Assembly (NCBI GenBank): GCA_964640155.1
Contig: CAZXEQ010000003.1
Span: 325,498-357,497, forward strand
DNA: 32,000 nt
Direction of reading: 5' to 3'
Source of the DNA: an uncultured bacterium
GTDB taxonomy: Bacteria; Auribacterota; JACPWU01
Part shown: positions 1-30,989 of the stretch, piece by piece
How positions within the stretch are numbered: position 1 is the first letter of the stretch
How the letters are laid out: every line of letters starts with the position of its first letter
Notes under the pieces: model-generated
What the model was told of the DNA's origin: nothing
Database searches by the model: none
Seen by the model: only the letters and a program-made list of their open reading frames with translations
Made by a program: the position numbers and the translations under genes

Positions 1-600
1 GGAGAAATCATTCGAACGACAAAAGGAAGTCCAGGTTATCTTCATGTCGCAATGCGCCTTTTTGTTTCTCAGGGCTGGATGACAAGAAAAGGTGAGGAGG
101 GTACGGATAATCTGACCTATACCTTGACAGAGGACGGAACTTATATTTTGTCACTTCTGGATTATTATGGGCCTGTGGCTGAGTTTATTGATCAAGCGGT
201 TGGAATAGATGATTATTTGTTCGGGAAATCACGTGCCCCTCCTGCAGATGGACAAAAAAAATCTTATGCGCAGCTGATAGAACTCTCTAAAAATCAATGG
301 AATTTGCCTCCCGAAACAGATTCTCGAAAGAAAATGCTTCGCGAACGTGTGATTCAACAGTTAAACGGAATGCTTTTAGGTCCCACCATGGTTGCTTTAG
401 GAATGCGTGGCGTTTTTGATCAATTTAATCCAGAAACACATTCAGTCACAATAAATCAAATTCAAGGGAATGCGAAACATCTTAAAGAGGCTTTTACTCT
501 TTTAGAACAACAAGGATGGTTAACTCGAAACGGAGATGTTTTCACGCTTACTCATGATGGACGATCGGCTGCAGTTTTAGCATCAGCTTATGGTGTGACT
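1..600 (+). other. Two winged-helix-like units preceding the methyltransferase (ORF-A)
   Basis: The pattern is duplicated: QGWMTRKGEEGTDNLTYTLTEDGTYILSLLDYYG (~67-170) and QQGWLTRNGDVFTLTHDGRSAAVLASAYG (~508-595). It resembles the wHTH dimerisation modules found N-terminal to some SAM-dependent methyltransferases. The call rests on pattern only. Confidence 0.3.
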
Positions 601-3600
601 ACTTCTTATCTACCTCTTTTCTCAAAATTGAAAGAACTTTTAAAAGGTCAAAGTAGAGAAGCGCTTTTTCCTCGTGATAAAAATAACAATGAAACCCATG
701 TCAATCGACCCATGAATGTTTGGGCAAGCGGAGGCGCACATATCGCCTATTTTAAAGAAGCTGATAAAATGATCATTGAAATTTTTAATCGCCCTCTTGA
801 AGAACAGCCTCGTGGTATTGCAGATATGGGATGTGGGGATGGAGCTTTCCTAATTCACTTGCATGAAATTGTGATGAGGACCAAACGAGGAGAGAAGATA
901 AAAGAAACTCTTACGAAAATCTTAGAATTAGAAAGAGAACCTGCTCTTATTAAAGATGGAGGGGCAAAACATCAAGAATATTTATTGGCAAAAGCAGAGT
1001 ATGAAAAATATAAATTAGTTATTGTGGGTGCGGATTTTAATAAGGAGCCCAGAATAATTACTCAAGGGAATTTGGAAAAAGCTGGCATTAAAGATGCAAA
1101 AATTATTTTTGGCAATATTAATGATCCTAAGAAATATGCAGAAGATTTGAGGGCATTGGGACTTGATCCTAAAAGTTTGTTACATGTTAGATCCATGCTT
1201 GATCATAATCGACCCTATGTAACTCCTAAAAATACAGATCATATTCGCGCGGATCGTAAAGCTGATTCGGGTTCTTATGTGAACGACGGGCAGGTTATTC
1301 CCAATAACCAGTTACAGCAAAATTTAGTAGAACATTTAGAGGGCTGGCAAGAACATTGCGTTGGAGATGCAGGGCTGCTTGTGATTGAGCTTCATACCAT
1401 TCCTCCGGAATTGGCTGCGACAAAAATTGGAGATACGCTTGCTACGCCTTATGATGCACATCATGGATTTTCTGATCAGTATATTGCTGAAATTCCCACT
1501 TTTGTAGGAGCGGCAACAGAGGCTGGTCTTGAACTTGTTGAACAGAAGGCCTTTCCAACCACAACTCCTGAAGCTGCAACAGTCAGTATTAATTATTTTA
1601 GAGCGAGTGCAAAAAAGAAGGTTCAAGTTTCTTGGGCAAGATCGTTTGGTAAAGTCTATGCAGTTCATGATGGTCCTGATGGGATTTATCAAGCTTTAAG
1701 ATCTGAAATTACAAAGAAAGATCCACAATTTAATTTTGATTTATTAGAGAAGGCGTATCGATTTGGTGCTGAAAAATATAGGGACATTCGACATGATGGA
1801 AGACCCTACATTGTTCATCCACTTGAAATAGCTCTTTACTTGGTTCGTGTTCTTGGGATTGTGGATCAAGATGCCATTTTAGCTGCGATCTTGCATGATT
1901 TAGTTGAAGATGAAAATGTGCTTCTCAATGAAATCAAAGAAATGTTTGGTGAAAATGTTAGAGCGCTTGTAGACGATCTTTCAGAAGATTCTTCATATCT
2001 TGAAGAGCAAGATAAAGTTTATAAAGCTCAAAATGGTCAAGAGTTAACAGGGAAATTGGCCATGAAAATAGAACATATTGAGCGAGTCGATAAAAAATCC
2101 GGGAAATTATGCATTATCATTAAAATTGTGAATCGTTTGCATAATCTTTTGAGTAATGAATATCCTGTACGCAAAGCTAATTACGGAATGAATCTTTTGG
2201 AAATTCAAAGATGGAGAGTTTTCTTAGATCATCATGTTTCTGATATACCACCTCCTTTGATGGAAGATATTCGTTATTTCTTGGGAAGAAATAAAAAATC
2301 TCCAGATCTGACGCCTGAGGGAGCAGAGATTACAGTAACACATGACGAGCGAAATGCGCCTTTGGGGAAAAGAATTAAAGACAGTGAAGTAACGGAGCTC
2401 TCTATTGATGAGGATGGAAGTCTCAAAGCTGCTTTAGTGATTCATGACTCAAATAAGTCTGAAAGTGAAAGGATAAGAGACTCTCGTAAGTGGAAAGTCG
2501 AAGACGTAAAAAAAGCCGGGACAAAACTTCTTTCAGCAAGAAATAAGCTTATGCAAACTCTTGAAGCACGTTTAGCGAATCCTGAAAGCAGCTTAGCTAA
2601 AACTTACCAATATTTGATTGCAGCAGGAAAAATCGAAAACCAAGAGGCATTTAAAAATCTTTTGCTTGAAAAAGCTAAGCAAATGTCTCTTTTGGTTGTT
2701 GGGGATGAACAAGATTTGTTAAGTGCAGTCATTCATCAAGATGGACCTTATATGCATTGTCGTAGGGGTGTATCAGGCCGACCTCCAGCTCTATGGATGG
2801 GGTATATCACTTTAAAGAGAATGTCTGAAGAAATGTTAACAAGAGCTCTTTTAGATGAAGCTTTGCATGTTGCTTTCCCGGAAGAAGAACATCGAGATAA
2901 AAAAGGAAACGGGACTTTATTACATGATCAAGAATTGTACGAACATTGTGATCAAATTTTAAGATTTGCAAATATTGATTATATTTATCAGAAAATGTAT
3001 CAAGCGCAGCAGGGTATTATCGGGAATCTCGAGATTTTGAGAATGGATATAGATACAATTTCAGAAGAAGATATATTAGCTTTAAAGAAGATTGCCGATG
3101 AACATCCTTCCGATAGAATTTCTTTAGATAGCAGAGAAGAAATAGAACGATGCATAGGAATTTCTAGAAGATTTTTTGATGAGGCAAGAAGAATTGTTCA
3201 AAAATTGCCTTCTTATTTAGAAGATGATGTTCAGGAAATAGCTGAGGAAATCAGAGATGCTATCAGAATTTCTTCTGAGGAGATGAATAAAAATCTTGAT
3301 CTTGCTTATCGTCAATGGTTAGAACATCGATTTTTTGAAAATCCTGGAGAATCTCAACCTATTACACCCCCCGCTGCATTTTGCCAGTTTGATGCTGCTC
3401 CCAATTCTCTTGATGCAATCATGACAGAGATTCGTAAGGCTTATGGGAAAAACCGATTTGATGAGGTTCTCAGGCTTGGGTCAAGTTTAGCAGATGCCAT
3501 TCAAAAGGGACTTGCTATTCCTGATGATGTTCATGTGATGATTGGTAAGGGTTTCTTGGATAGGGCAAGAAGAATGAAAACTCAAGGTAAAATAGAAAAT

Positions 3601-6600
3601 GCTATTCGAGATTTTGATAGGGCCATAGAAAGTTTTGTAACGATGCGCGATAAAGGAGCGGTTAAGGTAGGGGAAGCTTCTGTGGAAAAACCAGTGCTCA
3701 TTGAAGAAGTAAGTAGAGAAATTGTTGTTTATGCAGAAGGTTATGTTGAAAAGGAAAAAGAAAATAGCAGAGAAATTCCTTTAGAAGTTCATTTTGCATT
3801 GGGTCGCGCTTATTTATGGTCTGCTATATGTGAAAAATCCGAAGGCAATATTGCAAAGGCCATGCAGCACTGTGCTCGTGCAATGGATTTTTTGACACAT
3901 TATGCAGCAGCCACTCAAACACCCGTAGTAAGGGGCGCAGCATTGTTAGGGGCACGAAAAGCTCCCACTCAAGGATTTAATGATAATGCAATGCTTTATT
4001 TATCTCAAGCGATGATAGAAAATGGAATAATTCAAATGTTTGCAGGATCTTATGATGCTGCACGTCAAATTTTTCAGCAGACACTGACGTCAAATACAAG
4101 GTTAGGCGAGAAAAAAGCAGAATTACAAAAATTTGTGCAGATATGTAAAGATTTTATTTCCGTTGATAAAGAAATAGTTCAGTTTTCAGGAAGCAAGGAT
4201 GCTGATGCAAGCTCTCTTTTGGGTAAATTAGCAGATTTAGAATCTAGAACTCGTAATAATGAAGATTTGCCATGTGCAGCAGCACAAATTTTTCTTTATC
4301 GATGGATGATTTATTGGAAATTGAAAGATGCTTCTCAAGCCGAGACAAATTTTCAAAAAGCTTTGGAGTCTCGTGATGATCGCTTTTTAATTGCATTTAG
4401 GAGTTTAATCAATGCAATGAGTAAGGCAAAAGTCCTTTGGAATAGAGATTTTTTACAAGCAATTGCTGCAAAGAAAGGACAGCCCTTTTTAAGACGCTTC
4501 TTAAGAGAAATAGTGAAGGATTATTATAGAAGTTTGGATTTGAAAGAATTTCGTGAAGCTGTCATGGAAGTGCTAGGTTTTAAAAGTTTTCGTGAATATG
4601 TTGAATGGCTACTCCAAGAAGAACAAGAAAGAGCTGTAGTAGGGGTTGCGCCAAAAAAAGCAGACGTAGGCTCTCCTATTAATCATCCAGGACTTGTTGC
4701 CCCTTTAATAGAAGCTATACAGGTCTTGCCTAGCGATGATGAGAGAAAAGTATTGGCAGCTAGGCCGGATATTTCTGCTACTCCTGTCCTTCAAGCAGCT
4801 TTAAGAGGGGAGATTCGTCCGATAGCAGATGTTATTAGAATTTCTTTGGAATTAAGGGATGAGTTGGAAAAAATTCAAAAGATTGATGTAGAAGTAGGTG
4901 ATCAAATTGAAATAAGGCAAAAGTGCATTGACATTGCGAAGAAATTTAAAGATGTATGGCTTTTCACGGAAAGTGACTTGGTAAGTGCTTTTTGGGATAA
5001 GTTCTTTACGGTTTTTTCTGGAGAAATGAATCCTGATATAGAGGAAGCACTTAAAATAGGACTTGCCTGGATAGAGAGACATTCTCATAAGTCTCATGAG
5101 CATCAACGTAGCTATATGTATTATCAATGTGGGCAAATCTATTATATGACGAATCTTCGTGCTGAAGCTACGGCATGCTTTCAGAAAGTAATTGAGCAAA
5201 GCTCGTCCGCTGAGTTAAAAATAAGGTCTTATTTTTCCCTAGGTTCATTGCTTTACTTAGAAGTTCGAGATTTAGAGGATGGGGCTGAAAAGACTTCAAA
5301 ATTAAAGCAAGCCAAGGACCTTGTTGCTCGCACATTAACGCAGGAAGCACTCAAGATTGGCGCGATAGATGCTTCTGTTGGTCATATGATGCTTTCTTAT
5401 ATTTGTGCTGAGCTTTGTGAGTATAAGGAGGCTTATGAGCATTTGATGAATGCAAAAACCTATCCTGGAAATTTTCTTTATGCTAAGCGTAAGTTTCTAA
5501 AAAGTTTTGGAGAAAGGTTTGAGAGTTTGACTTCCGGAGAAGATTTAAAAGTTTATAAAGATTTTTTAGTTTTTGCATGCAAACAAGAAAATCAGGAATT
5601 AAGAGATCAGCTTATTCGATTCAGAAGCGTTAAAAATCGAGCGTGGGTGAGAGCCGTGATGGAAGTTTTGAGTAATAAGGGGATTGCATTAAAGCAAAGA
5701 GAAGCAGCTATTGCCTTTTTGCGAGGGATGGATTTAGAGACGGAAAGTGCTGGTTTGATTGGAATTCTTCGAGAGCAAGCGGGTTTTGCGCTGAAACAAC
5801 AGCCTCATTTTTTGTGGGAGGGATTGGAGCTTTTAAGAACTTGTCCGACGCCTGAAGCAAAAGCATTTATTCAAGAAATTCTCGACAATGGCAATTATGC
5901 GAAGGCTGCAGGATATCGCGTGGAAAAAATAAATACGATTGCTAAAGCAAGAGATCAATATGAGAGTTTGCCGGATGTTTTTGAGGTGTCTGATGAGCGA
6001 GCCAAAACATCAAAATATTGTTTAACTCGAAAAGAGTGGAGTCAAATGCTTCTAGATTATTGGCCTTCTGATTCAGAGTGGGATGAATATGTTTTGGAAA
6101 GAGAGAGCTCTAAACTTTCTGATAAGTTTGAGCGTCTTAGCGTTCATGAAATACGTAAACAAATTGAAAAAGCTCGTGAAGAAGGTCTTGCTTATGATGC
6201 AATCATTGGACAATTAGAAGCATTAAATGTTTCAAGAATTAATGTGAATGAAGAGCTTAAGAATTCTCAAATTCGACTTGCAAGAGCTCAGAAACTCATG
6301 GATGAGGGGAATTTTTCAGAAGCAGCTGTAATGCTCTATGAAATTTTAACAGGTCGTTCAAGAGTTCGAGTCGTAGGACTGGAAATGATCATTGCTCATG
6401 AGAGGAATGGAGAAGACAAAGACGTTTTTGTTGTTGTATTAAAAGCTTGGGAATTACTTGAAAGAGCAAACTATTTTATGGAGACAAGGCCTGGGGATTC
6501 TATGCCAACTCTTGAATATGCAAAAGCATTAATTGAAAAATGGAAAGATAAAGATGAAGAACTTCGAACAAAAGATCCTGTTGATATTATGGAGGTTGTT

Positions 6601-9600
6601 AGGGCTTTGTATTTCTTGGAGAGACCACAAGATGCGCTAAGAGTTTTGGAATTAATTCCACCCGTTTTTTTTGATAACTATGGCTATTTTGCTCTTTGGC
6701 GCCTGAGATTAATGTTTAAGACTGACGATGATCGTTTTTTGGGTGAATATGAACGCGTGAAAGAAATGACAGATCCAAAGGCAAAAAATCTATTAGGTAA
6801 ATTTTGTAGAGAAAGAGGGTTGTTTAGCGAGAGCATGGAGGCTTTTCAGGATGCATATACCGGTGCAGATTTTAAACTGACAAATACAAATGAAACCAGA
6901 CCGGGGGCCTTTATAGATGCTGTCCAGGCAGCACAAGTTCCTATTCGTGAAGTTTTTGAGGATGCATTTCTTTCATGTTTTGACATGATGCTAGGATCAA
7001 GCTTACGAAATAAGGGGGCAGATTTTGTTCGTGTTCACCTTCATGAGAATGCATTTGCCGATATGATTTTAATGTCAGCAGAAATGCTTTATGAAGCGGG
7101 CTGTTATTTGGAAGCCTTAAACTTATTAAATCAGCGCTTAAATCAAATAAAAGAAAAAAAACATCTTATTGAATATCATCAATGTCGAGGAAAAATTCTT
7201 GCTGCTTTGAATCGCGATGATGAAGCTTTAAAAGCGTATGAAGAAGCAGTTAAAATTGATGCGAGTAAATTTGAACATTGGAGAGATTTGATAGGAATTT
7301 ATTATGAGAAGAAAGATCGTTCAAATACTATCCGTTGTATTAAGAGGGCGATGAGTGTAGGTGCGTCTGCTGAGACAAGTTATTGTGTGGAAGATATATT
7401 AAAACGTGTGTTGGGTGGTGAAGATGATTCCAAGCTCTGGTTAGCGGATCTTTTGAGCGATCATTCAATTGCAAGTCCAGTAGAAGGCATTGTTTTTGGT
7501 GGTGAAGGTGAAGAAAGAAATGTTCAATTTACGGCTCTTGAAGCGCAAGTAGAAAAAGTTTTTGGTGCAAAAATAAATTTTGTTTTTTCTGAAAATGATA
7601 TTAAAACAAAAAACATCAGTGATGAAATCTTTAATAAGATAAAGACCGCTACAAAAACCAAGAGTCCTTATCTTGAAGAAGTTTTAGGTGAAGGAATGTT
7701 TAATGCAATGGTGCAAGAAGCCATGCGAGCAGATTGCCTAGGAGAAATTTTAAATCTTTTATTTTCTGAAGCAGCTTCAAATATTACTGTTTCAAAAGGG
7801 AAAGGAGTGGCAAAGGCAGGTCGTAGGAATGAAACCCTCAAAGTTGATGGACCCATCATAAATGCAAAATTAATTAACATGGGAGTTCAAGTGATTCAGA
7901 GACTTAAAATTCAAGGCGATACATCTCTTCTAGAGAAAATTGCTAAAGGCCCCTGGGTTGCTGAGACGCCAGAATTTCAGAAAGCACTTAAAGGTGAAGT
8001 TGTTAGAGTTTCTACTGCAGCACTCACACCCGATGCTCAAGGCCCACCTTCTCCAGGAAAAGATCCTGATGCTACCGCAAGCGAAGTTTCTGGAGATGAA
8101 GATGCTGCCATCCTAGCTGCTTTGAAAGAATGTATCCAAGCTTATAGTTCTAATCAGACGCTGTTAGCTTTTCAAAAAGCCCTTGAACTTGCTCCCCGGT
8201 TTAAAAATTTATCAAATAATCCTACGAAAAATCCAAAAGACTTAGAGACCTTTGCAGGAGAAGCAGCAGTGTTGATTGATATTCTGTCTAAGTATGGAGA
8301 TATTCGTTTTGATGCCTCTTTGGAGGAAGGATTAAAGGCTGTTTTGGATTGGACTGTGCGTGCAGGTCCTGCTTTTAAAATTCTTCGAGTTCTTGCGGTA
8401 CATTATCGTGGAAAACTTTATTTGAAGGCACAACAGTTTGCAAAAAGTCGTGCGTTTTTTGCAACTGCTTTGGCTTTGGATCCATCTGAAGTAAAGAATG
8501 TTTTGCCTGACATTGCTGAGGCGTACTTTCAGGAGATGCGAATGTCTAGTGACGTAAATCAAAGGAGAAAACTTGCCCAAGAAGCAATCCCTGTTATTGA
8601 AAATGATTCTTCATGCAACTCTCTTATTGCTTTGGGTTGGTTTTATGCTGAGGTTGGGAGTTATGACAAAGTTTTTGGTGTCATAAAGAAGTTGAATGCT
8701 CAAAGGGCAGTTTTGGCCAAAGGAGGCAAGGACCAGGAAAAAGTTGATGTCGATTTGATTTTTAGAAGCATGATGGCGCGATGTTTTGAAACTTTGCGTG
8801 AAAAAGATATTGAAACGCAGGTGAGATTTATTCAAGTTCTCATAAGTAATCAGTTAGAGTCTGCCTTCGCAGAAACTTTAGAAAGAGGTAAGGAGCAAGG
8901 GCCTTTATGGACACAGGCTTTGATTATTGTGTTAAATCAGGAGATGTCTAGTACTGAAAAAGATCGATTAATTCAACTTTTAAAGGGAGCTGACTTTCGA
9001 GGAGCTGAAGAGCAGTGGCTAGAGATTTTGAGGCAAAAAGCAGATTTATCTGATGCTAAGAAAAAAGAAGCTTTTTTTAAATTTGCTATCCCTGTTTCGG
9101 CGCGTTGTTTTTCTCTTGAAGTAAGAGACTTTTTACAAACATTAAAGCCAGGGTTTTCTTCATCAAAAGATACTACGTTGGCTCAAGCCATCGATCAGGC
9201 TGTTGCATCAATTGAAGGAAATCAGGCTATTGAAACAAAAATCTCTGAAGGAACCAGTTATTTAACCCTCAAAGAATGGCAAGCTTCTTTAAGAAGAGAA
9301 TTGCCTTTGGCTGGAGAATGGGATGAATGGATGTTAGAAGTTGAAACTGCTAAATTTCTTGAAGAATTCCCCTGGATGAAGGCAAGAAAAATTCGAGATG
9401 AACTGGTGAAAGCGCGTCAGTCAAAATTAGATATTGAAGCTGTGCGGTTCAATCTTAAAACTTTAGAAGAAGAGATACAAAGACAGTTTTTCAAGGATAA
9501 AAATTTAAGTCAACTCGAGTCCATTGAGCAGGAAATTCATAAATTGGTTGAGAATGGTCAATGGGATGAGGCTTTTGGCTATATTACTCTAGCCAGAGAA

Positions 9601-17679: not shown

Positions 17680-17786
17680 TTTTGTGAAAACGCTGTCTTC
17701 TAAATGTAACCCGTGTATTTCCTACTCTCTGTCAGACGAATTTGTAGAGAAAATTAAATGTGCAAAGAGCAGGGAATAAAAAGTAT

Positions 17787-17876
17787 ATGAAGAAATATTT
17801 TTGCAAATTCATAACCATTCTTTTATCTCTTTTTCTCTTTTTTGATTTTACGACAAGAGAAGCACAACTTTTTGCT
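17787..17876 (+). other. Sec-type signal peptide of ORF-B
   Basis: MKKYFCKFITILLSLFLFFDFTTREAQLFA|SD has a basic n-region, a 12-residue hydrophobic core, and small residues at -1 and -3-like positions. There is no lipobox. Confidence 0.7.
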
Positions 17877-23800: not shown

Positions 23801-26800
23801 GCATAGAAATAATGCTGATGTTCAGGATGTTATCGAAATTTTTGCTAATGCAAAACATAGAGATTTAATGAGAGAAGAGGGAAGAGTCCCTGAGGAAGAG
23901 CGACTAGACAAAAATATTTTGCAATTATCAATAATTGATTTAGAAAAGCAAGGCTATAAGCAGGTGGATTCTGTTGGCCCTCATCAATTCACAGTTTGGG
24001 AAAAGGATGGGGAAAGAGTGCTAGTAAAAGCAAGAGATTCGGATCTTTGGTTTTATCCTTTGATGGAGTTTGCTGCGGCTAGATTCGCAAGAAAATTAGG
24101 TGTTAAAAATGTAAACAAAGTTCACTTGGGAAGTCCAAAACATCCCAATCAGATTTTTAGCTCAATCATTGAAGTTTTTGAAGATTCTACTCCACTTTTA
24201 TCTAGCTCTTTTTTTGATCCAACTCCCCCCAGCGAATTAGTTCAAAAACATTCTGTTTTAGCTAATTTATGGCCTAACTCGATTGATCATAAGGCTTGGT
24301 TAGAAGTGATGGACGATCCACATAAGTTTATTGAGAGCGATATTTTTAGAGTTTTTTGGGGTTGGCTAGATCCAATGCCAGCAAAGAATGTCTTGGTTAG
24401 AAAAAATAGAGAAAAATGGCAAATGCGATTTATTGATTTTGCTCCTTCTCCTGTACAGTTCTTTTGTAGTGCACACGGGTATCTCGAAGCTCATGAAGAA
24501 TCCATCAGAAAACACGGTATGGGTTTAATCATGAAAATAGCAGAATTAACAAATGAAGAGATTTATCAACTTGTTGATGAGATTTTGCCTGAGACTTTGT
24601 CAGCAAATAAACAGATTCCTAGTGAAGGAATGTGGGCTTTGGAGAGTGTGCGTCAGGGGATGATTATTAAATTGATTCATAATCGAAATATTTTTCGAGA
24701 ATGGTTTCAGAAACAACCTGAGTATGAAGTACGACAGAGAGAATTACGCGAGCAAGAAACACGAAAGATTATTCAGGATGGCGGAGTTATTGAAGAAGGA
24801 ATTTCCGTTGTTTGCCCGGTTTATCGAGAGCTTGAAAATGGGAATTTCTTTCGATTGATTGAAAGTTTTACAAATCAAACAGCTGTGACGGGGAATTATG
24901 AGCTTCTTTTGCTTATCAATAATATGCCTGGCATCAAAGGGCCTGTTTTTGACGAAAATCAAAGGACTTTATTAATCGCAAATTTTTTGGAAAATCTAGA
25001 TCCGAATGCAGCCGAGCCGGAGTGCTTATCGCGCTATTCAGAAGAGCAAAAGGAGATAATTCGTAAAGCTAGAAAAATAGGTCTTAAAGTGAAGGTAAGA
25101 GACTTTTCTACTCAGGGTATTGAAAGAAATATTGGATTAATCAGGGACAAGGGAGTTCAAGAGGTCATTGCAGAATATGTTAAGGAAACGGGTGGTGATC
25201 GAGTTGTTGCAATGATGGATGCAGATACAATTGTTTCTTCTAACTATGTCGAGAATATTTTAGTTCATTTCTCAGATCCCAATCTAAATTATCTTCATCT
25301 TGATTTGGATTTTCAAGTCACTGGAGAGGGAGTGGACGAAGCTTTCTATCACACGCTTTACCATGAGAGATGGCCTGGAATATCGAGATCTTTTCTTTCC
25401 TGTTTGGGCAATCAACCAGGAGGAATTTCACCCACAATTGTTGCTCGAGCTTCAGCCCTCAAGAAAGTAGGTGGAGTTCCCCATAAAGCCTTTAATGAAG
25501 ATGGGGAATTAATTGGGAATTTGGTTCATTTAGGTGGGTATCGTTTAGCTCACGATGTGCAAGCTGTGACTGCGGATCGAAAAAGAGCAGATGGATATAA
25601 TTCTGCGAGTCGAGGTTCTGGTGGTGCACAAATGTCTCCTTCAAGTTTGTTGCGTTTGCTTGATTTTCTTCTTTTGAAAAGTCATAAAAATAGTCCTCCT
25701 GAGATTGAAGCATTTTTAAAAATGCCGGAAGATTATTATGAAGACAGGGTTGAGCGCCTCATTTCTCCTCGGGAATCTTTAGATTTAGAGACGATCAAAT
25801 TTTTGAGAAGATATTTGTCATCAGATGAATTGGACGAGCTTGAGAAAAGAATACAGATAGAAAGAGATAAGCACGAAGTATTACGTAAAAGGTTGTCCGC
25901 TGCTGTGCATGTGATTGTTCAAAATGTTCTTCAAAATAAGGATAAGCAAAATTGGTTTGAAGGAGTTTCTGATCCAGAAGTGTTAGCCTTTTTTAAAATG
26001 AATGCGCATTGGGTTTATAAGCGTATTCAAGATTCAAGGCATTTAATCGTTTCGCCAGAAGCAGTCTTGGGATATCTAGAAGAAAACTTTCCAGACTGGT
26101 TCAAGCCTTATGATGAAACAAGGCTTAAACGTCAGGTAACAAATATACATGTCATTATTAATTTTCTCAACGAAGCTCGCAATCGATCAAAGGCTTTCCC
26201 TACAACTAATTTGCTTTTGAAAGTTTTAGAAGGGAAAATTTCACTTTCTGAATTCTTAAAAACCTTGCCGCCTAAGCAAATTAAAACTTCTGATGAAGGG
26301 GCTACATTCAAATTTCCTGGAGCATTAGCCTTAGAAAAAAGAGACGATTGGGATATTGACTTCATGTATTTCTTGCGTAAGGATGCTCCTGTTGTTGATG
26401 CCCAGGACAAGCATTTACAAACTGCTATTCATTACATCAATGAACAAGTTCGGGGTCCCCGCAAAGAAAAGTCTGTTGATCAAAAGAAGATCGTTCTTCA
26501 TGCCATCGATGCAAAATATCAAGGCAAGCCTCTTTTAGGTATTCCTATTTTCCCTAATGCTTATTTACCTCAGGATTTACTACTTGTGTATGGGCAAGAG
26601 GATGAGGATGACGGGGCTTTACATATATATATTACAAAGGCATTCTGGGAAAAAGTTTCTTTAGAAGAGTCAGCAGGTTTTTATACAAAGGCATTGGCAG
26701 AAGCGATTGACCATGAATGGTTTGAGGAAAGAGAGGCAACACGTGCTGATCTAGGGCGTCAGACACAACATCGCCGTGCCTCAGAACGAGCTAGATTTTT

Positions 26801-29800
26801 TACTAGAGATGGACAAGTCAGTCCTCTCCATCAAATTTGCTTTCAAATGTTGACGACTTCTCCATTTTCGGAATGGAAAGAGTGGGCAAAGGCTCTTTTA
26901 AAAGAAAATAGAAAAGGAAATAAATCTAATGAAGTAAATGCTTATGAAAAAATTTTTCTAGAGAATTTAAAAAGAGTTCTTTTAGGTCAGGGCAAAGAAG
27001 GCCTTGCTCTTCTTGTTGAACATGAGGGGTTGCCAAAAGAAATTGTTTCTTTATTCAATAAACCTTTTCGAGAATGGAGATCTTTGGCAAAAGAAATTTT
27101 TTATAATTCTAGCGATAAAGTTGCTTTGTCCGCAGATGCTGATCGGCTGAAAACAAATTTTAGCAAAGAATTTTTAATAGATCTCATAATAGGGCAAGGA
27201 GAAGAAGGAATTGTTTTCTTGCATAAACTTATTCGTCCTGAAAAAGATGGAGGAATCAGTCAATCTAATATCGAATTAAGAAAGTATATTTGGGAAAGAA
27301 TAAAATCAGTTTCTTTTGAAGGGAAAGAAGTAAAGGTTATACAGAAAACGGCATCTCGCAAGCCTTATGACTTGCCAGAAGATCAAGTACTGTTTAAAGG
27401 GCAATTGCCTCAGTCAGGGGTATTAAAATTAAAAAGTTTTGAATTTGAATTTAAGAATTTTGTAGGCTCTGATTATGAATTGGAATTTAAAGATGGTTTT
27501 CCAATCAGAATATTTTTTTTAAATGAGAACGTTGCTTTTGAGTTTTTTCCTATTATTGATCGTCAAACAGGTCGTGTGATTACTGTACATCGAGGAAAAA
27601 TTTCTCAGAAAGAATTTGCTGGATATGACGATGTGATTGTTATGACAGATTTGGATTCGTCAGGTTATCTTTCTATTGGAGGGAGTCCACCTGTGTATGA
27701 TTCTTCAGGCGCTTTGATAGGTAAAAAACTGATAAGAGCAAGGTTTAACGAGCATTCTGATGCGCGTGTAAGAGTTGCTGTCAAGAGAGGTATTATCCAT
27801 CGTTGTACTTCAGCAGATTCAGAATTAGATGAAGAATTTACCTTAATTTGGTCTAAGTCTCGCCAATGTTATATTTCTTGGTTTTCTGAAAAAATGTATG
27901 AAGAGGACTTTAACTGCTTAAATGAAGATCACGAGATCCATCGTTGTCGATTGACGGACGGAGTTTTAAATATGGGAGGAGAAAAAAACAGGATTACTTT
28001 TCTAGGACATCCTGAATTAAAAAGAGCCAATGTTTTTGACATTCGTAATCCCACGGGGAAAAAAGCTTTTATTGTGGGTGCACATTTGATGGATGGAGAA
28101 AGAGTTGTGCAAACTAAAAAACTTTCTTTGGTTTATACCGTTGCATCCAAGCCTTCAAAAGAGATGTTTGAGAAAGAACAACTTATGGGAGTTTTTGAAC
28201 ATCAGAGACCTACAAATTTAGAATTGGGAGAAGGAGAGAAGCTTAAGGATTATATAATCTCAGAATTGCGAATAGAAGGTGCTATCTTAACTGTGAATAA
28301 AAGAAAGTTAGAATTAGGACAATATTTTCCCAACGCAGAGGTTGAGGTTAGAGTTATTGATGGAGAACCAAGATATTTAAAGTTTGTAAAGGATCGTGAC
28401 GAAAATTCTGTTTTAGACAAAGATGGCCAACCTCTTATTATAGATTTGCAGAAAAATATACGCCAACAAATGATGGAGAAAGCAGCTTTGTCTGTTGAAG
28501 GACCTCAATCAACTTCTGGTTCTCAAGGTTTTTCTGGTTTGACAGACTCTCTCGAAGAATCTCCTTATCGGCCTATTATTGAAGAGAAGATGAGCAAAGA
28601 ACAATTCAAATCAGCAAGTTTCTCAAATGGAAAGTTTTCTGAGACTCAAGTGACCCATGAAAAAACAAAAGAAAAAATAGGACAGTCTGTAACAGTTTCT
28701 GAATTAGACTTTTTAAATGAGGTAGAGCTTTCAACAGAAGATAGGGATGCTCTAAAAGGCCTCAAAATTATTTTTATTGATGGTCTAGATGAAGCAGTTA
28801 AAGCAAAAGCGATAGAGTTGGATCTTTCTCCTCCAGAAGATTGTAAAGGAGCGCATTATGGGATTTCGAGACCCCAAATATATTTAGATACGAATCTGCT
28901 GGATCCGGCCAATAAAGAAGGTTTAATGCGTCAGCTTTATCATGAGGTGCAGGAACGTAAAACAGTGATTAAAGCGCTCGATGAAAAATATCCGAATTGG
29001 AGAACACAAAGAAAACAGAGAGAATATGCAGATGAGATTAATCTTTTTATTGAGTCAACCGCGGCTGAAGCACATGACCGTTTAGAGGCAGAAGAAAAAG
29101 ATGCGATTGATTTTATTCCTGAGCTTTTGGAAGTGGTTGATTTTTATAGAAATCAGTTAATAGAAAATGCCGCCTGCATCAGTTTATTGCAGAGAGATCT
29201 TAAAGAAATTTTCAATAGAAGGGTTTTGCCTGCAAAAAATAAACATGAGTTATTTTCTCGAGTTCTGGCAATGTATGAAAAAGAAGGTTATGCGGTAATT
29301 CCTATTTTGCATTTAATTTGTTCTGAAGTTTTTTTGTCGAGAACATCTTTTAACGTTACTGTTCAAGAATATGAACGGCTTTTCCCGATTTTAGGTCGTG
29401 CGCTAACTTTTAGAGAAAAATATTTTGCTGCTCAAGTTCTTAATTGTATTCGGACAATCCTAGTGGATAAGCGAATTAGGATGGAAGCCGCTTTTGATAA
29501 GGGAAAAGCGTTAGAAAAATGGGAGCATGAAATGGGAGGTTTTTTTGATCCAGCTTTACGTTTTGAGATGCCAGATAAAATTGAAAATGAAGAGCAGGCT
29601 TGGAATGTGATTTTTGGAAATAAGCACAATGAAAAAACATTTTTAGAACTTGTAACAAGGTATAGAAAATTTTATTCGTTCAGGATTTCCAATCTAGATC
29701 ATCGTCCTCCTCTTCAGTATGCTCTAGAAGAAGGAATTTATTTTCGGATTGGACCCGACTTGTATGTGACCCCTATCACACAATCTTTTAGGCGACATAT

Positions 29801-30590
29801 TATTTTTAAGAAAGGACCTCATGGAGAGATTCTTTTTGCTTTTGAAGTGATGGTGCCCTGGGAAGAAAATGATAAATTAGATATACATGCTGATCAAAGA
29901 ATAGAAGTAGCGAATGTTTTGCAGGAGGGTTTTCCAGATAGAGAGTATTGCCCAAAGCCCCTTTTCTCAAAGGCTTTACCTAAAGGACAGTATGATCTTT
30001 ATGGTAGCACGACAGACATCAGGGATCAGGATGGGCCTCTTGCTGTTATGGCGTTCGATTATAAGGATGGGAAACGATTAAATAATGTTACCAAGGAAGA
30101 TTTTAGAACGTGGGCTGAAATAATGGGATGTTCATTAGAAGATTTAGCAGAAGATATTATTAAACAAACGGCAGAATTATTAGCAGCCCTTCATCGAATG
30201 GGATATGTAGGGCAAAGTAGACGGATACGTGGCTCGGATTGTCATATTGGTAATATTCGTATAGTTTTTGATGCTAAACTTCAAAAGATAAAATTAGAGT
30301 GGGTGGGAGATTTTGCGTCGTTTCAGAAAATGGATCCGAAAGATTCTGATTTATTAGCCTGTGAATCATGGGATGTTTCGAACCTCATTGGTTATGATAG
30401 TATTCATGCTTTCTTTCCCGGACTTGTTAGTATTTTAACGATGTCAAAAGACGTGAAGATTTCAACAGGTCTTTTAATAAATATTTTTTCTCGCGCTTAT
30501 GGTCATTTTAGAGGCTATGGAGATCTATCCTTTAAAATTAAACCTCATGACCGGCCTAAAGCAGAATTTCAATTTGAGGCTGCCGCTTAA
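17787..30590 (+). CDS. Giant secreted multidomain protein (4,267 aa from ATG 17787; 4,276 aa if GTG 17760). Contains five kinase-like domains, a GT2 glycosyltransferase, two canonical domain X copies and a beta-rich region.
   Basis: The 12.8-kb frame is uninterrupted and ends at TAA 30588-30590. ATG 17787 is preceded by AGGGA (17771-17775) and yields MKKYFCKFITILLSLFLFFDFTTREAQLFA|S, an n-h-c signal peptide. The longest ORF starts at GTG 17760. Four internally paralogous ~250-aa domains keep conserved motifs in frame. Confidence 0.95.
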   Translation: MKKYFCKFITILLSLFLFFDFTTREAQLFASDSSDRLKAGEILKESIDFKISDFQKAPPVAIQGILTSFLKYFFLQSYEYSISLLTHRHISFQGIPVPSLFDEMMETLWELMREQEWKGLARRYMRELRLRLVEEHQGDVKKVQKELLRNIDIWEGNKLKLSQKKKGFAVLFESIDDEEEENSGLSQKEKDFFALLRQEALGQKGPAAQLLPEQLEKVIHRSMAHAKTVMKIFERFLQNQVAQVRPIYERAKVTHDEEIKAGELIFEILDFRPDFKRDPPDFSGQKFAEELFEKKIKNFGGRKYLFDQILFELRNLDDMDSRASLVLMHVLACFFKEDYLSKQGGVTLSREQFERLWRIYRSIDYDCAGVAMGCIAQVIYDPRIKVVGFTQDQIHSRAKKDFEIFLKRFIHNPNPRTYNLSIYWSQYFLTQDSEWLDEVIEKMNSFGRRSEKFNLILRGLLSKVCQDGKLRENINEFANKFIQPLDIAVSTNTPEDAWKAIWGTTDQPHLENAKKFLETVTSLRELYPYQLTSSDATPPLQFAIKNGIYFPIGGGLYVTPITQSFRRHTVFKLTNSGQVTFAFEVLIPGENTDRRLIATEQRWKVSSELLESFPLHNYCPTPLAMMDLPKGSYSLYGQEIEFSSKTPLSVMGFQYGEQEDGKRLDFITRPILDEIAKESGWDSDALSFEVAKQVTELTAATHALGYVGHNGKSSDHHTGNFRLILTGDRARPIKIKLVGDFEAFTKVSYEDQINKMGNDVNNIVPRLSLILDMDAEKLKKMFEEARDLPHIREVSDRKRKESLKNDFRALLVINPDNKDHLEELLASVNVRDCEQSVREQNNVITLGFFFEDEFLDKHGGLVLSQAQYDRLWKIYNEAAVAPEYAAMILGYISKVLNDDRISIEGQPDKKQVRKTSAQKIVSALEITSPTDNPKQAWKAIFGTTDQPHVQNTQKFIEMATLLRKIFPYELSKEDPRSPLKYALEEGIYFPIGGGLFMTPVTESFRRHMVFKLDDEGQVLFAFEVMIPGEEDYRRDIGAEKRWKVATDIIQNFPDEEYCIVPIEKAVLPSATYLLYGKSVSINASQSLCIMGFEYGKQEDGKGVFDEDGKRLEFVTRAMVNEIAKEAGWEPEALALEIARQVAELTAATHVLGYVGHINEGDERDGFTRCDHHTGNFRLIVRKGKDVPIKVKLVDDFRSFRKISFEEKATAVFVDHAHIVIGIPDISMIGLSEILYLSEIDLLGMFEEAENKQILSKIKNLGKGEFFIDYGKRKDDLKTIFRNYIMTMSYKEHFRNQLLDAILQESTESFAIENLLQILSFFFDEEFLPEPQKVVLTPEQYTKMWKIYEKVENDRDNAFVILDCLGKILSDERIIVSGWVQKSEGYSLMQGKFKRFLDQKRVDPKFQTRGFGFVGVATTPWVNFFIRAGVDAVEALDVPWDNMLLDGLIYPLCQEPVMKAIRQRLLKQIVPGSYKFDVKPVIPGIDGSPTEIFGDGSIQQNGFPTETLGNDRVVEALQAIFGTQEHPNIENSREFFRVATLLRKVFPYELSKDDPRPPLQYAIEEGIYFEIAPGLYMTPITESFRRHIIFKMTEPGKVDFACEVLIPGELEDRRDFAINMRKKVSSNLKEVFGDEYCVETIFDVQFPYGKYQMYGDEIIFNEKTPLNLLAYAYEDGKRMEFLTQDMLIKLADKMQIRIEDLEMKIARKAASCVAATHALGYVGRKDKYATSETGAEFVIGTRFDHHLGNFRLIVKKEDKKITIDVELVGDFGAFRDSTHLQRAEAFRKQDIRAVVEGENRFPGLVKLLNISKEKLYEIFEQEQRRLNTEVRDLSEMGGLAARPLGPGFSGLPDSLEESPYRPVIEEKMDKKQFKSASFSNGKFSSSQVMHEKTGTEIGQSVTGDNLDFLNNVEFSSEDRKALEGLTIIFIDGLDEAVKKKAIELGLTILEDCKGAHYGISRPQIYLDASLLDPTNKEDLIRQLHHEVQERKAVLDILNSHFKNWKEHRNNADVQDVIEIFANAKHRDLMREEGRVPEEERLDKNILQLSIIDLEKQGYKQVDSVGPHQFTVWEKDGERVLVKARDSDLWFYPLMEFAAARFARKLGVKNVNKVHLGSPKHPNQIFSSIIEVFEDSTPLLSSSFFDPTPPSELVQKHSVLANLWPNSIDHKAWLEVMDDPHKFIESDIFRVFWGWLDPMPAKNVLVRKNREKWQMRFIDFAPSPVQFFCSAHGYLEAHEESIRKHGMGLIMKIAELTNEEIYQLVDEILPETLSANKQIPSEGMWALESVRQGMIIKLIHNRNIFREWFQKQPEYEVRQRELREQETRKIIQDGGVIEEGISVVCPVYRELENGNFFRLIESFTNQTAVTGNYELLLLINNMPGIKGPVFDENQRTLLIANFLENLDPNAAEPECLSRYSEEQKEIIRKARKIGLKVKVRDFSTQGIERNIGLIRDKGVQEVIAEYVKETGGDRVVAMMDADTIVSSNYVENILVHFSDPNLNYLHLDLDFQVTGEGVDEAFYHTLYHERWPGISRSFLSCLGNQPGGISPTIVARASALKKVGGVPHKAFNEDGELIGNLVHLGGYRLAHDVQAVTADRKRADGYNSASRGSGGAQMSPSSLLRLLDFLLLKSHKNSPPEIEAFLKMPEDYYEDRVERLISPRESLDLETIKFLRRYLSSDELDELEKRIQIERDKHEVLRKRLSAAVHVIVQNVLQNKDKQNWFEGVSDPEVLAFFKMNAHWVYKRIQDSRHLIVSPEAVLGYLEENFPDWFKPYDETRLKRQVTNIHVIINFLNEARNRSKAFPTTNLLLKVLEGKISLSEFLKTLPPKQIKTSDEGATFKFPGALALEKRDDWDIDFMYFLRKDAPVVDAQDKHLQTAIHYINEQVRGPRKEKSVDQKKIVLHAIDAKYQGKPLLGIPIFPNAYLPQDLLLVYGQEDEDDGALHIYITKAFWEKVSLEESAGFYTKALAEAIDHEWFEEREATRADLGRQTQHRRASERARFFTRDGQVSPLHQICFQMLTTSPFSEWKEWAKALLKENRKGNKSNEVNAYEKIFLENLKRVLLGQGKEGLALLVEHEGLPKEIVSLFNKPFREWRSLAKEIFYNSSDKVALSADADRLKTNFSKEFLIDLIIGQGEEGIVFLHKLIRPEKDGGISQSNIELRKYIWERIKSVSFEGKEVKVIQKTASRKPYDLPEDQVLFKGQLPQSGVLKLKSFEFEFKNFVGSDYELEFKDGFPIRIFFLNENVAFEFFPIIDRQTGRVITVHRGKISQKEFAGYDDVIVMTDLDSSGYLSIGGSPPVYDSSGALIGKKLIRARFNEHSDARVRVAVKRGIIHRCTSADSELDEEFTLIWSKSRQCYISWFSEKMYEEDFNCLNEDHEIHRCRLTDGVLNMGGEKNRITFLGHPELKRANVFDIRNPTGKKAFIVGAHLMDGERVVQTKKLSLVYTVASKPSKEMFEKEQLMGVFEHQRPTNLELGEGEKLKDYIISELRIEGAILTVNKRKLELGQYFPNAEVEVRVIDGEPRYLKFVKDRDENSVLDKDGQPLIIDLQKNIRQQMMEKAALSVEGPQSTSGSQGFSGLTDSLEESPYRPIIEEKMSKEQFKSASFSNGKFSETQVTHEKTKEKIGQSVTVSELDFLNEVELSTEDRDALKGLKIIFIDGLDEAVKAKAIELDLSPPEDCKGAHYGISRPQIYLDTNLLDPANKEGLMRQLYHEVQERKTVIKALDEKYPNWRTQRKQREYADEINLFIESTAAEAHDRLEAEEKDAIDFIPELLEVVDFYRNQLIENAACISLLQRDLKEIFNRRVLPAKNKHELFSRVLAMYEKEGYAVIPILHLICSEVFLSRTSFNVTVQEYERLFPILGRALTFREKYFAAQVLNCIRTILVDKRIRMEAAFDKGKALEKWEHEMGGFFDPALRFEMPDKIENEEQAWNVIFGNKHNEKTFLELVTRYRKFYSFRISNLDHRPPLQYALEEGIYFRIGPDLYVTPITQSFRRHIIFKKGPHGEILFAFEVMVPWEENDKLDIHADQRIEVANVLQEGFPDREYCPKPLFSKALPKGQYDLYGSTTDIRDQDGPLAVMAFDYKDGKRLNNVTKEDFRTWAEIMGCSLEDLAEDIIKQTAELLAALHRMGYVGQSRRIRGSDCHIGNIRIVFDAKLQKIKLEWVGDFASFQKMDPKDSDLLACESWDVSNLIGYDSIHAFFPGLVSILTMSKDVKISTGLLINIFSRAYGHFRGYGDLSFKIKPHDRPKAEFQFEAAA
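19275..20017 (+). other. Atypical protein-kinase-like domain K1 (ORF-B)
   Basis: G-loop-like YFPIGGGLYVTP and beta3-like HTVFKL. Catalytic-loop-like DHHTGNFRL (19929-19955; the D-to-N spacing matches the kinase D..N). DFG-like LVGDFEAF (19997-20017). A helical lead-in begins around 18780 (FFKEDYL...QFERLWRIY). Confidence 0.6.
20592..21382 (+). other. Atypical protein-kinase-like domain K2 (ORF-B)
   Basis: YFPIGGGLFMTP, HMVFKL, DHHTGNFRL (21294-21320) and LVDDFRSF (~21362-21382). The lead-in begins around 20326 (FFFEDEFL...QYDRLWKIY). Confidence 0.6.
22329..23105 (+). other. Atypical protein-kinase-like domain K3 (ORF-B)
   Basis: YFEIAPGLYMTP (G-loop degenerate), HIIFKM, DHHLGNFRL (23013-23039) and LVGDFGAF (23085-23105). 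The lead-in begins around 21741 (FFFDEEFL...QYTKMWKIY) and carries a ~130-aa insertion. Confidence 0.6.
23322..23808 (+). other. Domain X, copy 2 (ORF-B)
   Basis: GFSGLPDSLEESPYRPVIEEKM...IIFIDGLDE (23563-23589)...EDCKGAHYGISRPQIYLD...LHHEVQERK (23730-23756)...KNWKEHR. Confidence 0.7.
23931..24470 (+). other. Divergent kinase-like domain K5 (ORF-B)
   Basis: QFTVWEKDGERVLVKARD (beta1-3 with Lys), LMEFAAARFARKLG (alphaC-like Glu), IIEVFEDSTPL (hinge-like), LDPMPAKNVLV (D 24369-24371, N 24387-24389) and MRFIDFA (24429-24443). It is unrelated in sequence to K1-K4. Confidence 0.4.
24801..25600 (+). other. GT-A fold family-2-like glycosyltransferase domain (ORF-B)
   Basis: ISVVCPVYRELENGNFFRLIESFTNQT..YELLLLINN matches the GT2 N-terminal signature (vSViiP.YNe....l.Sl..Qt..yEiivvdd). 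The DxD motif is MMDADT (DAD 25218-25226). NEDGELIGNL..GGY resembles the GT2 ED..L motif. Confidence 0.7.
26480..26760 (+). other. Possible degenerate domain X-like segment (ORF-B)
   Basis: VLHAIDAKYQG...GALHIYITKAFWEKV...LAEAIDHEWFEEREA (26709-26735) keeps the order (h-h-ID ... H-IY ... HE..ERE) but lacks the DCxG cysteine. Confidence 0.25.
26859..27262 (+). repeat. Tandem ~67-aa duplication (ORF-B)
   Basis: SPFSEWKEWAKALL...FLENLKRVLLGQGKEGLALLVEHEG versus KPFREWRSLAKEIF...FSKEFLIDLIIGQGEEGIVFLHKLI. The second copy starts at 27060. Confidence 0.55.
27300..28480 (+). other. Beta-rich region with weak internal repeats, unknown function (ORF-B)
   Basis: The composition shifts from the helical E/K/L-rich scaffold to short alternating hydrophobic/polar stretches. 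Examples are LKSFEFEFKNFVGSDYELEFKDGFPIRIFF; GYLSIGGSPPVYDSSGALIGKKLIRARF; GVLNMGGEKNRITFLGHPELKRANVFDI; GAILTVNKRKLELGQYFPNAEVEVRVIDG. Confidence 0.35.
28527..29012 (+). other. Domain X, copy 3 (ORF-B)
   Basis: GFSGLTDSLEESPYRPIIEEKM...IIFIDGLDE (28767-28793)...EDCKGAHYGISRPQIYLD...LYHEVQERK (28934-28960)...PNWRTQR. About three quarters of residues are identical to copy 2 by eye. Confidence 0.7.
29598..30323 (+). other. Atypical protein-kinase-like domain K4 (ORF-B, C-terminal)
   Basis: YFRIGPDLYVTP, HIIFKK, DCHIGNIRI (30237-30263) and WVGDFASF (30303-30323). The lead-in begins around 29319 (SEVFL...VQEYERLF). Confidence 0.55.
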
Positions 30591-30638: not shown

Positions 30639-30845
30639 ATGCGAATGAACAGAAAATCAATTAAGTATTATGATTGGGAAGAAACCAGATCAGAACAGGT
30701 TTCTCCAATGACCTCAGAAAAATGGTTTTTAACTCCCCGCAATGTTTCTCAGATTGATCTTTCTGCATTGAAGAAAGAAGTTAAATTAAAAGCCCCAAAA
30801 CAGGCTTCTTCAACCGCCAGGGGAAGAAGTCGGGTATCTGCTTGA
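30639..30845 (+). CDS. Small hypothetical protein (68 aa), doubtful
   Basis: ATG..TGA ORF in the intergenic space after ORF-B. It is basic and Ser/Lys-rich with no recognisable motif. No Shine-Dalgarno is visible. The only support is an extended -10-like TGCTACAAT 10 nt upstream of the ATG. Confidence 0.3.
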   Translation: MRMNRKSIKYYDWEETRSEQVSPMTSEKWFLTPRNVSQIDLSALKKEVKLKAPKQASSTARGRSRVSA

Positions 30846-30960: not shown

Positions 30961-30989
30961 TTGACAAATACCATTTTATATGCTATATT
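30961..30989 (+). promoter_or_regulatory. Sigma70-like promoter for the downstream gene
   Basis: TTGACA (30961-30966), a 17-nt spacer, then TATATT (30984-30989). It sits in an AT-rich intergenic region about 37 nt upstream of the GTG at 31026. Confidence 0.5.

Follow-up and report, generated by a model that had tools for sequence, protein, structure and literature searches.

What kind of proteins are encoded by two neighbouring bacterial genes of several thousand codons each, and on which cell would such proteins act? The question is raised by a stretch of DNA of 32,000 nucleotides (nt) (contig CAZXEQ010000003.1 of assembly GCA_964640155.1, positions 325,498 to 357,497), here called the window, in which two giant open reading frames (ORFs), ORF-A and ORF-B, both on the + strand, take up 95% of the sequence. 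A preliminary description, made from the window alone without database searches, had read them as a probable two-gene megaprotein system for the delivery of effectors or toxins. According to our analysis, the window instead covers a portion of a chromosomal gene cluster with three or more giant paralogues (ORF-A, 6,580 amino acids (aa); ORF-B, 4,267 aa; ORF-C, cut by the window edge). Its source is an uncultivated bacterium of the Planctomycetes-Verrucomicrobia-Chlamydiae (PVC) superphylum, the closest sequenced relative of which is a Candidatus Auribacterota metagenome-assembled genome (MAG). By sequence comparison, three domains of the encoded proteins, which we designated N, Y and X, define a rare family of mostly giant proteins whose other modules are different enzymes.

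A cluster of paralogous giant genes

ORF-A (1..17679; all features below are likewise on the + strand) is stop-free in frame +1 from the first base of the window to a stop at 17677-17679, giving 5,892 codons in view. Its suspected extension past the left edge was borne out by the full-length product, P0002, encoded on a 357-kb NCBI contig, which has 6,580 aa, 688 of them N-terminal residues encoded upstream of the window. ORF-B (17787..30590) runs from an ATG at 17787 (4,267 aa), or from a GTG at 17760 (4,276 aa), to a stop ending at 30590. The other five frames hold 276-592 stops each over the span of ORF-A, and the other frames hold 182-431 over that of ORF-B; ORF-A and ORF-B together have zero stops across 10,159 codons. 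With a composition-based stop frequency of 0.0765 per codon, or one in 13 codons, open frames of this length would arise at random with a probability of about 10^-204 for A and 10^-148 for B. GC content at codon positions 1, 2 and 3 is 0.52, 0.36 and 0.26, a pattern typical of coding DNA. Re-derived in this way, the frames agree with the preliminary description of two adjacent giant genes on one strand.

An independent Logan assembly of SRR8893623 matched 23,424 nt of the window with no mismatches, and the same stretch from the end of ORF-B through a small ORF to the start of ORF-C was present in a second sample, SRR31893870. No dispersed DNA repeat in the window exceeds 76% identity or a length of 300 nt, and near-identical copies are absent; Tandem Repeats Finder detected no tandem repeats in the window, and the internal repeats are detectable at the protein level only. 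The identical independent assembly and the lack of near-identical DNA repeats show that the window is not an assembly artefact, which settles the concern that internal repeats might have led to misassembly.

The third gene, ORF-C, begins at about 31026 with an inferred GTG start and leaves the window (31026..32000). It opens with a hydrophobic, signal-peptide-like N-terminal segment, followed by an N domain that is 44% identical to residues 61-290 of full-length A. The closest genome match to ORF-B is the Candidatus Auribacterota MAG (locus L002), at 73% identity, and the order of B homologue, small ORF and C homologue is kept there at 65-73% identity. Residues 2846-3576 of ORF-B are missing from this otherwise collinear, 73%-identical homologue, indicating that a whole module was gained or lost.

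Domains N, Y and X and the family in which they occur

Word-indexed homologue searches with the whole of ORF-B, the last 5,000 aa of ORF-A or the N-domain alignment returned the query proteins and one 540-aa fragment only. An exhaustive HMMER search of 1.84 billion cluster representatives, using a profile built from residues 1500-2640 of B together with the paralogous Y and X copies, retrieved 386 proteins at E<=1e-3, 244 at E<=1e-10 and 69 at E<=1e-30, mostly of 1,000-7,000 aa. Among the top 148 of these, about 100 contain Y and about a dozen X, and one protein can have as many as four copies. A family 2 glycosyltransferase (GT2)-like domain with its C-terminal extension makes up about 40 stand-alone proteins of 500-700 aa. 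The N domain is found in about 20 giants of the family, within about the first 650 residues and usually starting before residue 100, and Y, X or the glycosyltransferase domain is also present in them.

One member, P0038 (5,718 aa), is collinear with the ORF-A product. Two have a named source, Chlamydiota MFC1667908.1 and Omnitrophota MAG MFA5147407.1, and at least one protein with N, Y and X domains, P0024, is from an Omnitrophota MAG. Taken together, 15 N-led giants contain GT2, several methyltransferases, transketolase, AA_kinase, RamC_N, an M48 peptidase, a calcineurin-like phosphoesterase (Metallophos), PRTase-CE, TPR-S and FHA; a HAD domain stands beside transketolase and AA_kinase among the metabolic domains of relatives, and the Chlamydiota member has LOG/SLOG domains and three methyltransferases. 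Further giant ORFs of the family were seen on metagenome contigs, at 5441-20731 of locus L009 (at least 5,097 aa, with N and Y) and at 2-20704 of locus L010 (at least 6,901 aa, with Y in two copies and X in one). The contig that carries the member P0087 measures 2.17 Mb, a hint that the genome is small.

Domain Y is present in four copies in ORF-B, of about 330 aa and 40-55% identity: Y1 (19224..20186), Y2 (20538..21536) and the C-terminal Y4 (29535..30587), delimited by tile-versus-whole BLAST and alignment, and Y3 (22284..23309), the copy used for the structure model. The motifs SFRRHxxFK, FAFEVxxPxE, DGKR, AxxHxxGxxG, DxHxGNxR and VxDF are kept in all copies. DxHxGNxR, followed about 18 residues on by VxDF, is invariant in 7/7 aligned Y copies and corresponds to the catalytic-loop Asp/Asn and the DFG-type Asp of kinases. 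Structures were predicted from alignments of 3-6 sequences, because the word-indexed searches had given few homologues. In the AlphaFold2 (AF2) model of Y3 (predicted local distance difference test score (pLDDT) 62.7), a long helix, a loop, two strands and the DF motif follow one another in the arrangement of a kinase catalytic loop and DFG segment. About 48 of the 50 top Foldseek matches of this model in the PDB are protein kinases, pseudokinases, phosphoinositide 3-kinases, WbdD or Bud32 (best E 8e-3). Against the viral structures of BFVD, six of the eight top matches are Ser/Thr kinases, and protein-kinase annotations are attached to about half of the 50 matches listed; the best match has a probability of 0.98 and an E-value of 1.9e-3. 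TM-scores were low in both searches.

Four results weigh against a kinase assignment. Neither Foldseek search (PDB, BFVD) gave a match at E<=1e-3; a comparison of 14 Y sequences with Pfam at E<=1 found no kinase family; a profile search of the PDB returned chance-level matches only, such as thiamine pyrophosphokinase, and no kinase; and hhalign of Y with protein kinase A (PKA) gave a probability of 0.4%. On balance, we predict that Y is probably an atypical kinase-like domain. The kinase-like domains of the preliminary description thus remain plausible for the four Y repeats, given their motifs and the kinase-dominated Foldseek lists, but they are not statistically secured.

The N domain, found in ORF-A, ORF-C and relatives, has invariant DxH, EG, GAE, GVE, RD and GGFH motifs on a strand-helix-strand core, which is interrupted by a helical insert of about 300 aa. 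Among Pfam families, PF04187 (ChaN, Tiki superfamily) ranks first in two of nine native and three of eight insert-deleted N domains, with the matches in register at profile positions 139-204 (E 1.7e-4 to 8e-3). The scores of 17-22 bits are sub-threshold (cut-off 27.7), and the AF2 model reached a pLDDT of 54, so poor that Foldseek matches from it are meaningless. A profile search of the PDB with the N domain gave chance-level matches only, the USG protein being among the chance matches for Y, N and X. We read the His/Glu motifs as possible equivalents of the Tiki motifs (N-terminal xxH, Glu and C-terminal GxxH), and the N domain appears weakly ChaN/Tiki-like.

Domain X occurs once in ORF-A (15589..16194; residues 5885-6086 of full-length A) and twice in ORF-B (copy 1, 23316..23891, with pLDDT 70-92 in the model; copy 2, 28512..29099). 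The two ORF-B copies are 75% identical to each other and about 37% identical to that of ORF-A. Across the family, G, Y, HYG, RxQxYxD, HExxE and a distal H are invariant, and AF2 modelled X confidently as a small alpha/beta unit. The unrecognised domain that A and B had been said to share is therefore confirmed in both, and sequence comparison indicates that it is real and a mobile module of a wider, rare family. The further argument drawn from it, that A and B evolved and function together, does not hold, as X, Y and N are mobile modules in many otherwise different giants. X being a family module and no private link between A and B, an obligate two-gene machine is not supported.

Modular anatomy of ORF-A and ORF-B

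Pfam recognises only the front portion of ORF-A. Two tandem AprA_N/winged-helix (WH_AprA) units (1..648), the first of which starts upstream of the window, form an internal duplication (A 634-766 versus 780-907 by tile-versus-whole BLAST). They are followed by an AprA MT2-like, S-adenosylmethionine (SAM)-dependent methyltransferase (Methyltransf_36, 1003..1590; E 6.2e-81, 271.9 bits) and by an HD_4 domain (RelA/SpoT-type HD hydrolase-like, 1759..2007; E 4.2e-11). The latter scores 43.2 bits against a cut-off of 27.2, covers the first half of the profile and contains the HD...ED motif (LHDLVED at nt 1891); it has the defining features of the RelA/SpoT-type HD hydrolases and is predicted to be a hydrolase. 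A region of about 2,900 aa with scattered TPR matches in Pfam extends over 2400..11010 (boundaries approximate) and includes a duplication of residues 2610-2894 versus 3697-3985 of full-length A; a further, smaller duplication was also found in ORF-A by tile-versus-whole BLAST. The methyltransferase, the HD domain (as RelA/SpoT-type) and the TPR repeats noted on inspection are all confirmed in A.

Downstream of this region lie about ten divergent tandem repeats of about 120 aa, designated R120 (11026..14661; residues 4364-5575 of full-length A), which are 25-44% identical. The R120 array is kept in the A-like protein P0038, its copies have almost no similarity at the DNA level, and it matched no family. 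The C-terminal part of about 490 aa contains a Pol-beta-type nucleotidyltransferase-like motif, GGASLWRSEKDTTLDVDI (16414..16470; GGASLW-x9-DVD), which was identified by eye alone and gave no match to Pfam or to any hidden Markov model (HMM).

Whole ORF-B matched no Pfam family at E<=0.01, and a sub-threshold GT2 match was the sole signal when it was searched in tiles. Its modules are ordered Y1, Y2, Y3, X, K5, GT2, a module of about 730 aa, X and Y4, and a helical unit, Z, precedes at least three of the four Y copies (before Y1 at 18690-19199 and before Y3 at 21666-22160). K5 (23904..24791; B 2040-2335) is a possible fifth, divergent kinase-like domain, with the motifs VLVK ... DPMPAKNVLV ... 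IDFA noted by eye alone; it has no HMM support, and an hhalign comparison of Y with K5 was not significant. The GT2-like glycosyltransferase with its C-terminal extension (24789..26366; GT2 part, B 2335-2640) scores 17.9 bits (E 3e-3), under the cut-off of 23.3, and has a DAD motif (DxD) at nt 25212. The C-terminal extension is common to stand-alone relatives of about 550-600 aa. Stand-alone and N-led relatives (E down to 1e-48) pass the Pfam GT2 cut-off, P0133 with 42.7 bits and P0049 with 31.4 bits, and by transitivity the presence of a GT2-like domain in ORF-B, as first described, is supported through them.

The module of about 730 aa (26322..28514; residues 2846-3576) is the one missing from the Auribacterota homologue. 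An X-like motif in its first part (IDHEWFEEREA, compared by eye with LHHEVQERKAV) suggests that the module may start with a degenerate third X copy. ORF-B is without the N-domain core and retains a linker-like segment, L (18069..18359; residues 95-191), which is 34% identical to the linker after the N-domain core of ORF-A (residues 504-601 of full-length A). Segment L may serve in docking or processing, or it may be what is left of an N domain that was lost. The motif GxIPxPxLF[DQ]E in segment L is common to ORF-A, ORF-B and P0038.

Comparison with known giant proteins

The nearest parallels are giants of the Omnitrophota. The Archaeovorins, whose type protein comes from Velamenicoccus archaeovorus, are defined by a length of more than 30,000 aa (gene of more than 90 kb), many transmembrane (TM) helices, SecA-like domains and small PilZ gene(s) directly downstream, and they combine glycosyltransferases, methyltransferases, glycosyl hydrolases, peptidases and NUDIX hydrolases (West-Roberts et al. 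2023, bioRxiv 10.1101/2023.11.21.568195). A 'multi-enzyme' class of very long Omnitrophota proteins has also been delineated (bioRxiv 10.64898/2026.06.07.730766), and published giant multi-enzyme proteins of similar content from this phylum are interpreted as extracellular effectors. The window proteins share with these giants an origin in PVC-superphylum bacteria; a single polypeptide with methyltransferases, glycosyltransferases, HD- and kinase-type domains and a TPR/HEAT scaffold; N-termini of the signal-peptide type; sequence that is for the most part dark; a small gene that follows immediately; and a proposed extracellular or effector role.

By contrast with the Archaeovorins, the window proteins are 5-20 times smaller (4.3-6.6 versus more than 30 thousand aa) and have neither internal TM helices (Kyte-Doolittle) nor a SecA-like domain (Pfam). 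A methyltransferase (in A) and a GT2-like domain (in B) are present; no NUDIX, glycoside hydrolase, C39/S8 or other peptidase match was found by Pfam, and the 68-aa ORF downstream gave no PilZ match. They also have signature modules of their own (the ChaN/Tiki-like N, the kinase-like Y, and X) and stand in a tandem paralogue array in an Auribacterota-like genome.

The preliminary description had likened the proteins to MARTX and other multi-effector toxins. As in MARTX (Vibrio RtxA), a large secreted protein would carry an array of different enzymatic effector modules that are shuffled between strains, and the multi-effector reading agrees with ours in spirit. No defining part of MARTX was found, however: RTX/A-repeat regions and Peptidase C80 were not detected by Pfam in A and B, whole or tiled, no type I secretion system (T1SS) genes are in view, and the effector repertoire differs. 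MARTX toxins bear a C-terminal T1SS signal, whereas the signals here are N-terminal and Sec-like, which argues against T1SS export.

The polyvalent proteins of phages and conjugative elements and the polymorphic toxins, concepts of the Aravind laboratory, are giant multi-enzyme proteins with fast-shuffling modules, for which delivery into another cell is proposed. Relatives of the window proteins resemble them in holding PRTase-CE, SLOG/LOG and TPR-S, which are typical of conflict systems. In contrast to them, the locus is chromosomal, and neither an immunity gene nor Rhs/YD, HINT or a known toxin tip was found. A phage, plasmid or defence-system origin was rejected, since tblastn of the window against phages and plasmids gave no match and PADLOC returned just one 16-bit methyltransferase-type match in the window and no known anti-phage defence system.

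Candidatus Menyafoubacter and the PUNC01 clade near Auribacterota have a large (about 6,000 aa) secreted protein (PMC12057145). It resembles the window proteins in broad lineage and size, in having a signal peptide and no TM helices, and in being proposed to act on other cells, and differs in its CASH beta-helices, PL6 lyase, Rhs and adhesin domains, none of which is found here.

On the features tested, the sequences fail to place the window proteins among MARTX, non-ribosomal peptide synthetases/polyketide synthases (NRPS/PKS), adhesins, polymorphic toxins, defence systems or the Archaeovorin class as defined; the absence of NRPS/PKS, RTX and Ig/cadherin-type adhesin matches in Pfam upholds what had been noted by inspection. 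Giant multi-enzyme proteins of an unexplained kind in PVC bacteria are already known, as are large secreted proteins near Auribacterota with entirely different domains. New in the present case are that the proteins are compact, that their genes form a tandem array of paralogues, and that N, Y and X are signature modules which define a family across phyla. The novelty first claimed for the two genes is weakened by the published Omnitrophota giants.

Possible functions of the giant proteins

P0002 begins MKKLITLLLCVSLLD, with a signal-peptide-like N-terminus, MKKLITLLLCVSLL, and its N domain lies within the 688 residues encoded upstream of the window. The N-terminus of ORF-B, MKKYFCKFITILLSLFLFF, is likewise signal-peptide-like. 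No other segment of either protein passes a Kyte-Doolittle hydrophobicity scan, so that there is no further hydrophobic helix, and MKK lies ahead of the segments with acidic or neutral residues behind. By our reading of these features, the N-terminal segments resemble a Sec signal peptide or an N-in/C-out anchor. Our best reading, in which our confidence is evenly divided, is that these are exported modular multi-effector proteins, conceptually like the Archaeovorins and outside that class. The proteins of ORF-A, ORF-B and ORF-C would be exported by Sec and would act as multi-effectors on or inside another cell, be it host or prey; as their enzymes need ATP, SAM or nucleoside diphosphate (NDP)-sugars, which are unavailable outside a cytoplasm, action on or in another cell is the most plausible course for exported proteins. 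The N domain and the interspersed X modules would be candidates for anchoring, docking, processing or delivery, and the genes may represent an arsenal growing by module shuffling and gene duplication, with no obligate two-part machine.

Several observations weigh against the multi-effector reading. The signal-peptide calls for ORF-A, ORF-B and ORF-C were made from hydropathy and charge alone. X has no detectable relative in Pfam or the PDB, with chance matches only, such as MAO-B. Transketolase and amino-acid kinase modules in relatives fit a toxin poorly; distant relatives in metagenomes are single genes flanked by the housekeeping genes HAD, nitrilase, PlsX, FabH, FabD and PfkB; and genes for secretion systems, immunity or chaperones are not apparent in the window. 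No secretion genes were in view around the distant relatives either, and a metagenome scan with Y gave seven loci without conserved neighbours.

A bolder form of the multi-effector reading, which we consider speculative and rather unlikely as a whole, would make the N-led modular giants an undescribed, PVC-wide effector-delivery family in Chlamydiota, Omnitrophota and Auribacterota. In this form, N and X (possibly a hydrolase) would process or dock the polyprotein, and kinase-like, GT2, methyltransferase and alarmone-hydrolase-like modules would be released into the host or prey. ORF-B, keeping only the post-N linker, would depend on the N domain from A or C, and the array of A, B, small ORF and C would be the growing arsenal.

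The main rival, possible though on the whole doubtful, is a self-directed envelope scaffold or membrane-tethered multi-enzyme scaffold, anchored by the N-terminal helix, whose modules build or modify the cell's own surface polymers or regulate its own physiology. The combination of kinase, methyltransferase, GT2 and TPR recalls enzymes of polysaccharide assembly and termination, and the kinase-methyltransferase WbdD is among the Foldseek matches of Y. The metabolic domains of relatives (transketolase, AA_kinase and HAD) and the housekeeping genes next to distant relatives point the same way, and a 2026 preprint on Omnitrophota reads many giants as membrane-anchored with cytoplasmic domains (bioRxiv 10.64898/2026.06.07.730766). 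Against such a scaffold, a single N-terminal hydrophobic segment after positive residues predicts an extracytoplasmic location for the bulk of the protein, apart from the pools of ATP, SAM and NDP-sugars, and the fast gain and loss of modules between close relatives, together with the paralogue arrays, is more typical of genes of conflict and interaction.

An obligate two-gene toxin or delivery system, with A and B as carrier and cargo on the model of MARTX or ABC toxins, is improbable. The spacer between the genes (17680..17786) measures 107 nt to the ATG and 80 nt to the GTG of ORF-B and contains neither a promoter-like nor a terminator-like site, consistent with the earlier remark that no hairpin terminator separates them; the two same-strand genes are probably co-transcribed. 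The common X domain and the match of segment L to the linker after the ORF-A N domain also speak for a pair. Yet X, Y and N are found in many unrelated architectures, distant family members occur singly among housekeeping genes, and Pfam scans of A and B detected no RTX repeats, C80 protease or pore-forming or translocation domain, nor was a T1SS gene found. Moreover, a third paralogue follows with a promoter of its own, sigma-70-like and near-consensus (30961..30989; TTGACA-17-TATATT with an extended -10 TG), whose -35 element and adjacent sequence are kept in the Auribacterota MAG. A near-consensus, partly conserved promoter at this place suggests that ORF-C is probably a separate transcription unit, and in the multi-effector reading A and B would be expressed together and C from its own promoter. 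The two-gene system of the preliminary description is for these reasons not upheld.

A natural-product megasynthase of the NRPS/PKS kind, brought to mind by the AprA-type methyltransferase, the AprA_N and WH_AprA matches beside it and RamC_N in one relative, is very improbable: tiled Pfam searches of 10,800 aa at E<=1 detected no ketosynthase, acyltransferase, acyl or peptidyl carrier protein, condensation or adenylation domain, and signal peptides are not expected on such synthases. An assembly chimera, or a decayed run of pseudogenes read as one ORF, could be suspected from the metagenomic source and the protein-level repeats and is scarcely credible beside the identical independent assembly over 23.4 kb, the limited DNA repeats, the stop-free frames with coding-type codon-position bias and the collinear homologue in another MAG.

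It is becoming apparent that giant multi-enzyme proteins characterise small-celled PVC bacteria with a host-dependent or predatory way of life. At a tenth of the size, the locus described here is a tractable version of them: it has three paralogues with clear module boundaries and a close relative showing gain or loss of a whole module, and through three recurrent domain families that lack annotation it connects proteins of three phyla. Should Y be an active kinase and N or X a processing module, the family would provide a handle on the mechanism of giant multi-enzyme proteins and would form a new clade among the atypical kinases of inter-cell conflict. If the proteins are self-directed scaffolds, they would represent an unusual way to organise envelope biosynthesis.

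The small ORF, intergenic regions and base composition

Between ORF-B and ORF-C lies a conserved, basic ORF of 68 aa (30639..30845). It follows the B homologue in the Auribacterota MAG too (L002 7559-7753; 72% aa identity) and is also present in the second sample (L004). Substitutions at its codon positions 1, 2 and 3 number 14, 6 and 25, and this excess at third positions indicates that it evolves as coding sequence. It matched no Pfam family, PilZ included, at E<=0.01. Rfam identified no family in the window, the intergenic regions included, and an RNA gene within these regions was rejected on this basis.

The GC skew is positive, strong and uniform across the whole window (0.10-0.40), and the coding strand is purine-rich, above all at first codon positions (purine 0.61-0.65). 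Both features are consistent with the composition of the encoded proteins, which are rich in Glu, Lys, Asp, Gly and Ala.

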